Part shown: positions 6,880 to 24,146 of the stretch, piece after piece
Position numbering within the stretch: the first letter of the stretch is position 1
Layout: each line of letters opens with the position of its first letter
The notes under the pieces: model-generated
What the model saw: the letters and a program-made list of their open reading frames with translations, nothing else
What the model was told of the DNA's origin: nothing
The model's database searches: none
Position numbers and translations under genes: made by a program
Origin: Escherichia phage CMSTMSU
Direction: 5' to 3' (one strand)
DNA: 64,000 nucleotides
Sequence record: MH494197.1

Positions 6880-8638
6880 TTCTGACTCAAAAGTTTTCTT
6901 TTAATAAAATACGTGGTACTTTTTGTAACCCGTATCTATCATCTGATTGACGATGGAAAGCTTGATTTGTAAATGATGGTGTACTAATACACTTAAACCA
7001 TTCACGTTCAAAATAAACAGAAGGTACAATATGTGCACTTAAGTAGTTTTGTCCAAAACCACGTACAATTTTAAGTTTAAATAACTTGGACGCAACACCA
7101 CCTTCAGTGTCATATGCTTTGATGTTGAATTCTAAATTTATATCATCATTTGCACTGAAATCTAAACTTTTGCATATGCCGTCCCGACCAAGAACCCATC
7201 TGCGGTGAGGTCCAAACCATATTTGCGAATATCATCAGGTCCACCATCTAATACATAAGATACCTGATTAGTACTGGTAGTTTGTATTTGTGGATAAGTA
7301 CTGTGACCGAAATATTCACCCACATGAATACTACCTAAATCACTATCAGTTGTGAAGTCTATTGAGTTTCCTTCTTCTGCGTTCACTAGAACACGGAACA
7401 TCTTCTCTTCACCTATAATATTCTCACCTAAGCTTGAATCATAATATCCTAAATCAATCCAATCTGAACTTTTAAACACTGGCTTTGTTTCACCTAGATC
7501 ATATTCACCAGAGATTACATATGGATATACAACGTTATCTTTCAACTGATACAAATGATTAGGTAAAGGTTTATCACCATCAGCGTATATACCATCTACA
7601 TTGTCTGGACATACCCACATTTGATATGCTTTGAAACGTTGGTTTATAGCGAAGCGGTCAGTGTCATAACTATATGTACTCAAAATATCAACAATTTCAA
7701 CTTTGAAATATGCATCACATGCATCAGAGTCATATAGGAATGTTTGCAGAAATTGTCCATTTGGGTTGAAAACCAATCCTGAATCTAGTAACTCCCCAGA
7801 GCTAGTTTGAATATTAACCTTAATTTCTTTATTAATACCAAATACAGGCCATATATTATCAATAGGACGTAGGATTGCATAATCATCAGTAATGTGGCGA
7901 GCAGGAACTTCTGCTGGGGTCATATCGAGTAGACGATACGCTGGATAAAATACTCTAGGAGATAGGTCTGTTGATGTATCAGTTCCTAAAATAAATGGAC
8001 GACGGCGACCAAATCCCTGTACAAATAAAGTACTGTTGGAACCGTATTCAATATCGCCAATACAATATAATTTGTCATCATCACCGATTTCGATTCCGGA
8101 GTAACCCACACTTCCTGACTATCATATTCAATTGTTACTTCATTTGAACCAATTTCACCACTAGGGAAATGTTACCATAGTACATAACATTTACTGCTTG
8201 AAGATAAAAGTTAATCTGTTCAGAGTTGTTAAATGTACCATCATCTTTACAATGCAATTTAATAAAATAAACATCTTCGGTATTAGTGCTTGCCGATAGA
8301 TCAAATTGAGTTTTATCAATTTTACATTTGTGCTTACCATTAATCAACTTGTTACCAGTAATACCTGATGATATAGGTGTGAGATTAGATTCATCATTTC
8401 CAACATACACTGCGTAGTGATCTTCTGGTTGAAATACTGCATCAGAACTGTCCAAACCCTGAATAGTTAGAATCATCTCTAAGTATTCGTTTTCATTAAG
8501 TATATAACTATCATCCGTTGTGGTTTCTTTGTTGATACTCAAACGCACAAGAATGTCTTGTCCTTCTTGTATATATCGAGCATCGGCTTTTATATCCCAT
8601 CTAGGGTAAAAGTTGTCATTATAATTCTCCATAGCCAA
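6880..8638 (-). CDS. large hypothetical protein (~580 aa), possibly virion-associated, frameshifted
   Basis: ORFs 8135..8638 and 7162..8109 plus an open frame continuing to ~6880; TATAAATA box just upstream at 8658-8665. Confidence 0.4.
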
Positions 8639-8649
8639 GCTACCATTAT

Positions 8650-10119
8650 CTATAGATTATTTATATAAAGGACAAGGAAGACCCACAAAGGTCTTCCCTG
8701 TTTATAATCAATCTTCAGTTTTGGCGTGAAGTCAATCTTACGTAGTTCTTTCAACTCATCTTTATAGATGTTCCAAATCAAATCATGATTCGACAGGAGA
8801 TTGTTATATTCATCCATTAAATCCAAGTTATGTTGAATATCAGCTAGTACTGATTGATAATTGTCTTGGGTCCAACGATATGATGGGAAGTTTACGATGC
8901 TTTGAATATTCTCATCGGTTGCTTCGATTTCAGTGTTTAATGATTTAACAAACTCAACCATTTCTGAACGGTTAGCAAAACCCTTAACCTTAGCAATCAT
9001 ATCATTATCAAAACATTCTTTGATTAGAATCTTATAACGTACTTCAGCAGCACAATCATCAAGTTTCTTCTCATAGCGTTTCACATAGTATTTGAAACGG
9101 AATTCAACAAAGTCCTTAATCAAATCCATTGTGTTATCATAGACTTTAACCTTACCATTCTCACCTAGAACAGTTAGGATTTGTGTCATCTTCTTATGAA
9201 TGCCAAAGTATTCAATTACATCTTTCTCCACCCATTTAGCAGATGTTCCGCGTGGTAATTTGATTGTAATATCAATAACATCAGTACTATCATTATCATA
9301 ATCACGAATATCACCATCATCGCTCATCTTAATGAGTTTCTCGATGAATTTCTCAATACTGTAGTTAGGTGGTAGACCTGTTACTTTAACAGTACTGGCA
9401 TCAATTACTTGTGCTTTACCATAGAACTCATATTTGTTTTCATCAAGCTTAGTTACGATATCACTTGCACCACATGAAACATAGTATGGAGTCATTTCTT
9501 TTAATGGTTTTTATCAATAGCACGAATACAGTTATCAATAACATCTTCAATCTTATGTGGTAGAATTGTACTCTTATAACCTACTGACATACTATCGTTA
9601 CCAAACAAAGATAGTGGGATAATAGGTAAAAAGAAACTTGGTTCCATTGTAGTACCATCATAGTTCTCTTTCATTGGAATAATGTCAGAGTCACGCAGTA
9701 CTAACATTTCAGTACTTTTATTCTTTTAACATAAGTATAACGAGCAGAAGCTGGAGTACTGTTTACTTGTGTACCAAAACCACCACGTTTACCAATGAGT
9801 GGGTAGTTGTTTACTACTGGTGATGCTAGGTTCTGGAGAGTTCCAGATGCAGATGTATCACCGTGTAGATAGATACCATCACTAATCATTTTACCAGCAC
9901 ATGATACAGTTTTGATTTCACCACTAACTTTTGAGAGGGTGAAGATTGCTTTACGTTGTGAACTCTTAAGGCCATCAATCCCGGGATTGCACGGTCTAGT
10001 GTGTACATTGAATATTCTAGTGATGTGGTATTCACATAATCAGAACTGTTATAATCTAGTAGAGTTAGTGTTTGGTTATCGATGCTTTGATTTTCGGTTT
10101 TTACTTTTAGCCATTCCAT
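8650..10119 (-). CDS. gp52: DNA topoisomerase II medium subunit (T4 gp52-like, GyrA-type)
   Basis: YSMYTLDRAIPGLMALRVHNVK at N-terminus; fragments 9886..10119, 9701..9889, 9501..9707, 8650..9495 in different frames. Confidence 0.8.
8658..8665 (-). promoter_or_regulatory. T4-type late promoter TATAAATA
   Basis: exact TATAAATA on the minus strand about 20 nt upstream of the start of gene 6880..8638, just downstream of hairpin 8676-8697. Confidence 0.4.
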
Positions 10120-10133
10120 TGTCTCTTTGTAAA

Positions 10134-10165
10134 GGGAACACCATGTTCCCCATTAATCTATATTA
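10134..10165 (-). repeat. repeated intergenic element, copy 1: TATAGATTAAT box plus GGGAACA/TGTTCCC hairpin
   Basis: minus-strand sequence AATATAGATTAATGGGGAACATGGTGTTCCC in the 44-nt gap between the two topoisomerase genes. Confidence 0.6.
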
Positions 10166-12158
10166 TTCCATCCAGTTCTTACGATCATCAGCACGTTTCT
10201 TGTTGAAAATCAAATCAAGAGTTTCACCAAGGCGACCATCATCTGTAATCGCTACTGCAACACTGTTAGTGAATGCATCACGGAAGTTTGCTTTTTCTAA
10301 CGTACCCAATCCTTTCGCACGGGTTGCTTTCCAACCTTTCCAATCATCTGGGTTGTATTCATGTACATCATGACCATAGTAGTACTTGGATTCCTTACCT
10401 TTCTCTAGAATGATGAATGGTGTTTTGAATATATACACAAATGGATTCTCTGGGTCTTGGAATAGTTCAGGCCAGAATTTGTATAGGAAGTTACATACTA
10501 AAGCACCAATGTTCTTTCCATCCTCATCTTCGTCGGCACAGATATAAAGCTTACCATAGTTAAGGTCTGCTCTTTCCGCTTTTACACGGAATCAGGTTGA
10601 TACTCGCCATTATATCATGCAATGCCATTGAATCCATTAATTCTTTGGTTTTCTCATTACCACTGACGTTCATAATTTTACCACGCAATGGTAGAATACC
10701 ATGAACTTTAGGATCACGAGCACTCGCCATGTTGGAAATAGCAGAATCACCCTCAGCAATTAGTAGGATGCATTTGGAACGATCCGTACCTGTACTGTCC
10801 AATAGTTTTGCAACTTTACCTTTCAGTAGTTTTTAGCTAGACGGCGATCTTCTTCTGCATCTTTCTTGTTGGTACGAGCAGCACAGCGTTCAAAAATTTC
10901 ATCAATCCACTCTTTGTTCTTCTTGACTAATTCATCGAACCATTCAGAATTCATCGCTTGTTGAATTGGACGAATAACGTTTTCGTTGGTTAGTTTTGAT
11001 TTAATCTGTGAGTTGAATGATGGTGCTTTCATCGTTGTTACGTTATAAATCAACAGACCTTCTTCAATATCAGAGCGGTTAGGTTTCATCTTGCGTTTCT
11101 TTGATTCTTTCTCTAGAGCAGTTCCTACTCCTAATGAGAAGAATTTCTTGAATGTATCAAGATGTGTACCACCATCAAATGCTGGGGCATTGTTAACCAA
11201 ACCATGCATATGGAAGTTATTGTTCATACCCGATACTGCATTAGGAACAATGTAGAAAGTACTGTTAAAGTTGAATGATTCATCTTTAACGTTCAATTGC
11301 ATCAGTTTAGATGCGTTGAATAGTGCTTTTTCGGTAGTTCCTTTAATTGCAATACGCTTACCGTTAAGGAAAATCTTATAGGTAGGGTTAGCAGCAGACA
11401 TTTCTTTCAAAATACTGTATAGCAATTCGGTTGGTAGTTTACGGTTCGGAAATACCTCAGAACTCAAAGTGAAGCGAATTGTTGTTCCAGTCTTATCTGC
11501 TTGAACCTTACGAATAGTTGGTTCATGTACATGAAGTTCAGGAAACATAATAGTTCCTTCTTCGAACTTCTGATTGAACTTATAAAACCGTCATAACCGT
11601 CATTGCTACTTTGTGTTTTATACGGGCGACCTTGGCGATGGATTTCAAGTTCAGCTTTAGAACTTACAATCATTGCAACTGAACCACCCAAACCATTCTG
11701 ACCGATTGTTTCATCACGCTTCGAATCATCAAAGTTACGACCAGTTTTAGTTTCAGTCATTACCATTGTACATAGGTTTTTCTGATACTCAGGAACATAG
11801 TCAATTGGAATACCACGTCCATTATCACTGATCTCAAAGGATAACTCTTCCTCATTGAAATCAACTTTGAGTACTGGCTCTTTTGTACCAGCTTTTTAAA
11901 TTCATCTAAGCTGTTATCGATAATTTCACGAGTAGCAGTTAGAATTGCAGGAACCCACTCAACGTTTTTAACTTCATATCCAGACTCACCAAAGATCAGT
12001 ACTTGACTTTCGTGAACAGAACGTGAACCCAGATACATCTCAGTACGCAAGCGAGCATGTTGATAATCGTTTAGACGTTGTACATCATGTTCCTGAAGAA
12101 CAGCACTTTCTTTCTTAGCCATTTGAATTCCTTTTAATGTCTCTTTGTCATGCAACAT
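10163..12158 (-). CDS. gp39: DNA topoisomerase II large subunit (gp39 plus gp60 equivalent in one gene, GyrB-type)
   Basis: GHKL ATPase region, Toprim ILLIAEGDSA, C-terminal RAKGLGTLE; five fragments 11760..12158, 11464..11766, 10823..11548, 10560..10802, 10163..10438 in shifted frames. Confidence 0.8.
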
Positions 12159-12191
12159 TGTATCATCAATGCTTTGTTTGTCTCAAAAATA

Positions 12192-12212
12192 TCGGGACAT
12201 TAAATGCCCCGA
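12192..12212 (-). terminator. rho-independent terminator
   Basis: CGGGACAT-TAA-ATGCCCCG hairpin followed on the minus strand by ATATTTTTGAG. Confidence 0.45.
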
Positions 12213-12218
12213 CAATTA

Positions 12219-13010
12219 TTATTTTACCAGAAGTAATTGTAATTCAGCACTAGGACTAAATTCATCATCACTCCAGTACTTGTGAACCTTCTCTGGACTA
12301 GCCTTAGCCAGTACTTCACCACCACCAACAATGTAGACTTGGTGTGAACCAATCAAACGGGTCCAGAATTTAATTGCATCATCAGTGTGAAGACTGTCGC
12401 TTAGTACTTTAATACCATGAGCAACCATATCCATAAAGATATTATAGATGATACCTTTAGTACCAGTTTTGGAGGCCGTAGCAGCAATCTCAAACACTTG
12501 TGGTACACCTACCACCGCATCATTAGACAAATGTCCACTAACGATAGCAAGCTGTTTACCAGCCTTATCATATGCAATAAACCCAGTACCATTCTTATTC
12601 ATAAACACATCATAATCTTTGTGTTCTGCGAACTTGACCATGTTGTGCTTACCTGTCATCTCGGCAGTTTTATCAACGAACTCATCACGGTCTTGGCCTT
12701 GGAAACTATCGAAACGTTGTGGCATTTCTTCCAATTTCTCTTTATGTTCTTCTTCACATGAATCCATTATATCACTAGTTCTGTCTTCTGTATCAGCTAA
12801 TTCTGCATCTTGTACAATATCAACCAAACCACGCATACTAGATTCTTTTACCTTATTAGGGAGTTTTGAACCTTTCTTAAGATTTCCCGCTTTTCGTCGG
12901 CGGCATTCCACTCTTTAGCTGCACTTTGTGAAATCCCTGCTTTTTGGCGAATTCAGGATTATGGCAGCAGCAGCGAAGAATTTCGCTTGGCTTTTACTTT
13001 TACTTGGCAT
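12219..13010 (-). CDS. hypothetical protein with DUF3008-like N-terminus, frameshifted
   Basis: ATG near 13010 gives MPSKSKSQAKFFAAAA, then shifts into ORF 12219..12911. Confidence 0.35.
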
Positions 13011-18526: not shown

Positions 18527-19819
<1,293 letters not shown>

Positions 19820-24110: not shown

Positions 24111-24130
24111 ATATATTCCTTTATATTTGG

Positions 24131-24146
24131 AAAGATTAATCCGCCG
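24131..24146 (-). promoter_or_regulatory. intercistronic hairpin between nrdA and nrdB
   Basis: ATCCGC-CGAA-GCGGAT stem-loop between the nrdA stop (24161) and the nrdB RBS. Confidence 0.35.

Follow-up and report, generated by a model that had tools for sequence, protein, structure and literature searches.

The enzyme of bacteriophage T4 is described as the only three-subunit topoisomerase of type IIA, whereas the enzymes of T2 and T6 consist of two (PMC11461880). The split of the T4 large subunit was caused by the mobile element MobA, which is always inserted within the Toprim domain and adds a C-terminal extension (CTE), an N-terminal extension (NTE) and a bypass cassette (bioRxiv 10.1101/2022.08.31.505936; PMC2988022). 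At the insertion site, the CTE and NTE of the cassette comprise ~44 aa and ~45 aa, respectively, and the element is present in 28 genomes, each of which has near-identical relatives with an unsplit gene (bioRxiv 10.1101/2022.08.31.505936). The medium subunit of T4, gp52, is encoded on the same strand ~6.2 kb downstream of gene 60, across the rII region. Genes 39 and 52 are likewise separated in the remaining T-even phages.

The closest described counterparts of the locus analysed here are found in jumbo phages, where the adjacent gene pair for large and medium subunit has already been annotated in dozens of Asteriusvirus-type genomes. In the records of fEgEco12 and PBECO4, both genes are intact and annotated as topoisomerase II large subunit (1965 nt) and medium subunit (1413 nt), with a spacer of 50 nt in between. 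In the record of EC.P1, the closest relative of the DNA studied here, both genes are annotated only as hypothetical proteins.

The present analysis concerns a stretch of 64,000 nt from the sequence record MH494197.1 of Escherichia phage CMSTMSU (hereafter the window, 64 kb), in which a preliminary description had recognised a single, unsplit large-subunit gene at 10163-12158; all features reported below lie on the minus strand. By megablast, 59 phage records matched window positions 8600-12300. Nine E. coli jumbo phages, including EC.P1 (99.0%), fEgEco12 (98.8%), BF17, WPEC3/5, vB_Ec-M-J, Ecwhy_1, Turkey3 and TH47, did so at 97.6-99.0% identity, and the PBECO4/121Q group (genus Asteriusvirus) was ~87% identical. 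Judged by these matches, the window is Asteriusvirus-like E. coli jumbo phage DNA. The order, strand and lengths of the two genes as well as the 50-nt spacer with its hairpin are alike in fEgEco12 (g418/g419), PBECO4 (gp453/gp452), 121Q (genes 52/53), EC.P1 and BF17. The corrected proteins of the window are 99.6-99.8% identical to those of fEgEco12, from which the locus differs by a few substitutions and artefactual deletions, and the DNA is ~87% identical to that of PBECO4. With a high degree of confidence, we therefore take the locus to encode the topoisomerase II (type IIA) that is usual for Asteriusvirus-like jumbo phages, a T4-type enzyme with two subunits, and its apparent breaks to be an artefact of sequence quality.

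Two differences in gene content were observed among these phages. About 790 nt of fEgEco12 are missing from the window at 24124-24135, and they contain the ORF g398 (257 aa) between the genes for the large and beta subunits of ribonucleotide reductase. A Pfam scan of g398 for a homing endonuclease domain gave no match; given its position between nrdA and nrdB, which is that of mobE in T4, the segment may represent a mobile insertion. In Escherichia phage A4 (L012 4124-4510), an additional gene with a DUF3307 domain separates the large-subunit gene from the structural-protein gene upstream, and this additional gene is absent from both the window and fEgEco12.

Fragmentation of the two genes and quality of the sequence

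As given, the region 10163-12158 falls into five pieces of ORF spread over three frames (11760-12158, 11464-11766, 10823-11548, 10560-10802 and 10163-10438). The one continuous region that had been described for the large subunit is therefore found only in part: ATPase, transducer, Toprim and C-terminal segments are indeed colinear within 10163-12122, but they do not form one ORF in the sequence as it stands. Four deletion events relative to fEgEco12, with 5 nt in total, account exactly for the five fragments; homopolymer runs are affected three times and a CCWGG site once. In the alignment to fEgEco12, one base each is lost from a T6/A6 run at 11893 (codon 77), from an A5 run at 11584 (codon 181) and from a T6 run at 10830 (codon 432), and two bases are lost at 10588 (codon 514, inside Toprim) from CCTGG on the coding strand, a Dcm site of the CCWGG type. 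None of the nine near-identical relatives shares these deletions. With the five bases restored, the gene for the topoisomerase II large subunit (GyrB/ParE-like, equivalent to T4 gp39 plus gp60) spans 10163-12122 and comprises 654 codons, and its length of 1965 nt equals that in fEgEco12 and PBECO4. After this reference-guided correction, the protein is identical to fEgEco12 g418 at 653 of 654 residues, with T302N as the sole difference.

The large-subunit gene starts with ATGGCTAAG at 12122, and the protein begins with MAKKESAV. The ATG at 12158, from which the gene had previously been taken to start, was rejected, as only the loss of one A from an A5 run at 12132 brings it into frame; the sequence of fEgEco12 has a TAA stop four codons ahead of the true start. 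In Erwinia phage Hallingskeid (L010 2471-2500), the annotated start of the large subunit precedes the conserved MAKK by 10 codons. Since this extension runs through the conserved AAGAGACA box and an AAGGA ribosome-binding site, the Hallingskeid start is probably mis-annotated.

The gp52-like region 8650-10119 is likewise broken into four to five ORF fragments as given, with five deletion events relative to fEgEco12 (10098, 9983, 9724, 9508 and 8719). After correction, the gene for the topoisomerase II medium subunit (GyrA N-terminal-like, equivalent to T4 gp52) extends over 8708-10114 with 470 codons, and the protein is identical to fEgEco12 g419 at 468 of 470 residues (differences I88T and A144S). 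It directly follows the large-subunit gene on the same strand, as had been described, but the spacer (10115-10162) measures 48 nt in the window and 50 nt in the relatives instead of the 44 nt proposed earlier. The latter figure stems from the use of the ATG at 10119, which we rejected as start of the medium subunit because it is brought into frame only by the 2-nt deletion at 10098.

These breaks are part of a pattern that extends over the whole window. Between 8600 and 12300, a global alignment to fEgEco12 contained 27 substitutions and 13 indel events, and all 13 were deletions in the window; the aligned span amounts to 3701 nt in the window compared to 3718-3719 nt in each of the nine relatives, which are thus ~17 nt longer over 3.7 kb. 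Across the entire 64 kb, 298 deletions but only 1 insertion were found relative to fEgEco12, corresponding to about one deletion per 215 nt, with 216 of the 298 residing in homopolymers of at least 3 nt and 46 at CCWGG sites. The aligned stretch of fEgEco12 contains 46 CCWGG sites, whereas none is intact in the window, where they often read CCGG (destroyed sites are found, for example, at 9983, 10588, 18903-18908 and 30771), and CCGG motifs number 28 instead of the 9 of the relative. GGWCC, CAWTG, CTWAG and GATC, which served as controls, showed no change between relative and window, and a role of Dam in the errors was rejected on the basis of 106 GATC sites in the relative versus 109 in the window. 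All of the 24 homopolymer runs of 7 nt in the relative are shortened, so that none is left in the window, and the longest open frame comprises 372 codons compared to 1010 in the relative, with no long gene remaining intact.

Deletions in homopolymers and at Dcm-methylated CCWGG sites are characteristic systematic errors of an unpolished nanopore consensus. Since the deletions are systematic, located at homopolymers and Dcm (CCWGG) sites and distributed window-wide, the fragmentation of both topoisomerase genes is, by all signs in the sequence, an artefact, and from the error pattern we infer a nanopore-type origin. The loss of all CCWGG sites with the control motifs untouched further implies that the sequenced phage DNA was Dcm-methylated; as such, its cytosines would be accessible to the host Dcm enzyme and not hypermodified as in T4.

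Spacer and flanking signals

The spacer between the subunit genes contains a conserved hairpin at 10133-10151, GGGGAACA-TGG-TGTTCCCC with the arm TGTTCCC(C), which is followed by a short T run. Its stability as calculated by RNAfold is -10.4 kcal/mol in the window and -12.1 to -14.1 kcal/mol in fEgEco12, PBECO4 and Hallingskeid. We rejected the hairpin as a strong intrinsic terminator, since the terminator scan missed it and only four T follow even in the relatives.

Just upstream of the medium-subunit start, the 11-nt box ACAAAGAGACA is located at 10120-10130 and includes an AAGAG Shine-Dalgarno-like core. A second copy at 12138-12148 ends 15 nt upstream of the large-subunit start, and these two, one upstream of each topoisomerase subunit gene, are the only exact copies in the 64-kb window. 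Among Asteriusvirus, Alcyoneusvirus and Erwinia-phage relatives, including PBECO4, A4, Hallingskeid and Muenster, variants of the box occur at both positions, and both subunit proteins begin with ATGGCTAA (MAK). The box may thus be an element for translation initiation or regulation that both genes have in common. A role as a general promoter or RBS motif of this phage is not supported, since only these two sites match well in 64 kb and looser matches were at chance level. One could speculate that the two copies act in cis as a common regulatory signal, for instance as a translational operator or as a site bound by a protein or RNA, through which the synthesis of both subunits would be coupled, but we regard this as rather improbable; alternatively, the pair could simply reflect two similar ribosome-binding regions.

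Upstream of the large-subunit gene, a putative promoter-like site of the sigma-70 type (TTGAGA-18-TACAAT, extended by TG; 10/12 in the consensus scan) was found at 12157-12186. The number of promoter-like sites in the region was 15 compared to a shuffle expectation of 15.5, and it is only the positional conservation that argues for the site at 12157-12186. Scan and conservation further point to two terminator-like hairpins, one with a T run at 12190-12214 that closes the upstream gene, and one of 13 pairs at 8672-8701 directly after the stop codon of the medium subunit. The promoter-like site, the flanking hairpins and the spacer hairpin all keep their positions in fEgEco12, PBECO4 and Hallingskeid, the latter being 78% identical at the protein level. 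This would fit a single transcription unit, in which both genes are probably co-transcribed from the promoter-like site at 12157-12186.

Domain content and predicted activity

All Pfam domains of both subunits scored above the curated cut-offs. The large subunit contains a GHKL ATPase domain (aa 62-172, 11608-11939; PF02518 HATPase_c, 36.5 bits versus a cut-off of 26.4) in which the N-box and G-box motifs were recognised (EIIDNSLDE, DNGRGIP and GQNGLGGS), followed by a transducer domain (aa 305-427, 10844-11212; PF00204 DNA_gyraseB, 62.5 bits versus 27) with SQIKSKL, a lysine motif resembling the QTK loop, from residue 372. The Toprim domain (aa 454-549, 10481-10766; PF01751, 39.9 bits versus 23.1) carries PLRGK as well as the metal-binding E...DxD motif, with AEGDSA from residue 457 and DEDEDG from residue 532, and is continuous only once the 2-nt deletion at 10588 is restored. 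The C-terminal TOPRIM_C domain (aa 567-654, 10166-10429; PF16898, 32.2 bits versus 29) corresponds to the C-terminal part of T4 gp60. Among solved structures, the best match was the unsplit gp39 of T6 topoisomerase II (8YLU, chain 8ylu_C; E=1e-46; PMC11461880), and an artificially fused T4 gp39-gp60 chain matches too. On this domain content, the large subunit is the ATPase/Toprim subunit (GyrB/ParE/gp39-type) of a type IIA topoisomerase.

In the medium subunit, the DNA_topoisoIV domain (PF00521, 217.8 bits) covers residues 42-457 of 470 aa, and the protein is 29% identical to T4 gp52 (E=3e-40). The catalytic Tyr127 lies in the sequence ARYT, which aligns with SRY of T4 gp52. A GyrA C-terminal domain is lacking, as in a short gp52-like partner.

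Large and medium subunit are predicted to assemble into an A2B2 type IIA topoisomerase. In such an enzyme, ATP binding would dimerise the GHKL domains, the gate duplex would be cut by the Toprim metal sites together with Tyr127 of the medium subunit, and another duplex would pass through this ATP-gated double-strand break. The medium subunit is too short to include a C-terminal wrapping domain of the GyrA type; from its domain content, the enzyme would thus relax and decatenate DNA like the T4/T6 topoisomerase II, without supercoiling. Some records of relatives name the proteins DNA gyrase subunit B/A, and E. coli GyrB structures match the large subunit at E about 5e-44, from which one could argue that the pair is a DNA gyrase (GyrB/GyrA) that introduces negative supercoils. 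Gyrase, however, requires the DNA-wrapping domain at the C-terminus of GyrA, which does not fit into a medium subunit of 470 aa that is filled by DNA_topoisoIV from residue 42 to 457. Further, the TOPRIM_C end is as in T4/T6 and eukaryotic topoisomerase II, and only those enzymes match the large subunit over its full length (residues 11-653). That the T4/T6 enzyme relaxes DNA (PMC11461880) also counts against a gyrase, which we consider very unlikely; the gyrase names in some records are probably loose annotation.

Comparison with T4 and other phages

As for a possible gene 60-type organisation, the two-subunit topoisomerase II proposed here was compared with T4 genes 39, 60 (with the annotated 50-nt bypass at 2803-2852) and 52, taken from NC_000866. 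The corrected large subunit is 25% identical to T4 gp39 over gp39 residues 3-473 (E=3e-22), and its residues 520-653 are 32% identical to residues 29-158 of T4 gp60 (E=6e-16, BLASTP). The T4 junction, which consists of the gp39 C-terminus and the gp60 N-terminus and occupies ~67 columns of a three-way alignment, is absent from both the window and PBECO4. The GGA codon of Gly-537 (10517-10519) corresponds to the take-off codon of T4 gene 60, but the position reads GAT GAG GAT GGA AAG AAC ATT GGT as uninterrupted coding sequence, with no 50-nt untranslated gap after GGA in either the sequence or its translation. Inside the large-subunit gene there is neither an HNH (MobA) nor any other endonuclease or extra ORF, its length being as in the relatives, and no CTE or NTE cassette extension was found in the alignment of the corrected protein to T4. 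Instead of an ORF split within Toprim, a single ORF of 654 codons is obtained. The earlier proposal of one unsplit gene without gene 60-type split or bypass-type gap is hence supported once the frame has been corrected.

A MobA cassette or a remnant of it inside Toprim could be suspected at the break 10560-10588, which sits 18-23 codons upstream of the DxDxD motif and thus near the T4 insertion site, and the Gly that follows DEDED is encoded by GGA, the codon of the T4 take-off site. Yet the difference from the relatives at 10588 is a 2-nt loss in CCTGG and no insertion, the downstream frame translates straight through VKAERADLNYGKLYICADEDEDGKNIG, the ~67 extra alignment columns are those of T4 with no equivalent of the MobA-derived CTE or NTE, and the gene holds 1965 nt as in the relatives and no endonuclease ORF. 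We attach practically no credence to a gene 60-type split, which can be regarded as already refuted by the alignment. The five fragments of the large and the four to five fragments of the medium subunit, with the 10588 break lying within Toprim close to the T4 split position, could also be taken at face value, namely as pseudogenes or as genes decoded by programmed frameshifting or bypassing. Against this, like deletions recur about every 215 nt over 64 kb and break essentially every long gene (372 versus 1010 codons), outnumber insertions by 298:1, go along with homopolymers and affect every CCWGG site, and all nine relatives at 97.6-99% identity carry the extra bases over 3.7 kb. Moreover, a lytic phage with all of its essential genes broken would not be viable. 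We thus deem real frameshifts extremely unlikely and retain the reading of an intact gene pair whose breaks are artefactual.

The locus shares with T4 (gp39 + gp60 + gp52) a homologous enzyme, the order of large and medium subunit on one strand and the GGA codon after DxDxD, whereas the split, CTE/NTE, mobA and the coding gap belong to T4 alone of the two. In line with the preliminary description, the contrast also holds for gene order, with genes 39 and 60 separate and gene 52 ~6.2 kb away in T4, compared to a spacer of 50 nt (the relatives' length) here. The unsplit gp39 and gp52 of T2/T6 (PDB 8YLU, 8YOD) form a two-subunit enzyme with continuous Toprim and TOPRIM_C as in the window, but the identity is only ~25-27%, an estimate based on T4 gp39 and on records of T4-like phages, and the large subunit of the window is ~50 aa longer than the T2/T6 type, with the extra segments in the ATPase region.

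Further afield, the Ackermannviridae phage Cba120 likewise has an unsplit large subunit followed by a gp52-like gene (orf014/orf015), but with ~25% identity, a 1-nt spacer and no spacer hairpin. The two topoisomerase genes of phiM9 are ~2 kb apart, and in a KVP40-like Vibrio phage no medium-subunit gene is annotated within ~2.5 kb downstream of the large subunit. The Klebsiella Alcyoneusvirus phages Muenster, K64-1 and KP13-7 contain an orthologous pair (~77% DNA identity) in which the box upstream of the medium subunit is kept. They differ in that a 1710-nt gene for a Hef-like (VSR-fold) homing endonuclease resides in the spacer (Muenster, L011 1930-3639), for which the window represents the empty site. 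This Alcyoneusvirus insertion is a second, independent route by which homing endonucleases target phage topoisomerase II genes.

When 50,697 phage records were searched by tblastn with the corrected large subunit, 2206 gave a match, and in 1959 of these no less than 80% of the protein is encoded at a single location. These unsplit records span T4-like, Ackermannviridae, Vibrio, Acinetobacter and Klebsiella phages as well as jumbo phages. With the T4 split originating from a MobA cassette in only 28 genomes, the novelty that had been implied for the unsplit form does not hold.

Overall, the finding carries little biological weight, and what can be learned from it in practice relates to the quality of the data: any ORF-level oddity in the window, be it a split or short gene, a frameshift or an odd start codon, should be presumed to be an artefact until it has been compared with relatives. 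A large subunit encoded by one unsplit gene, with the medium-subunit gene next to it, is ancestral and common among phages and was already known, and it is T4 that represents the exception.
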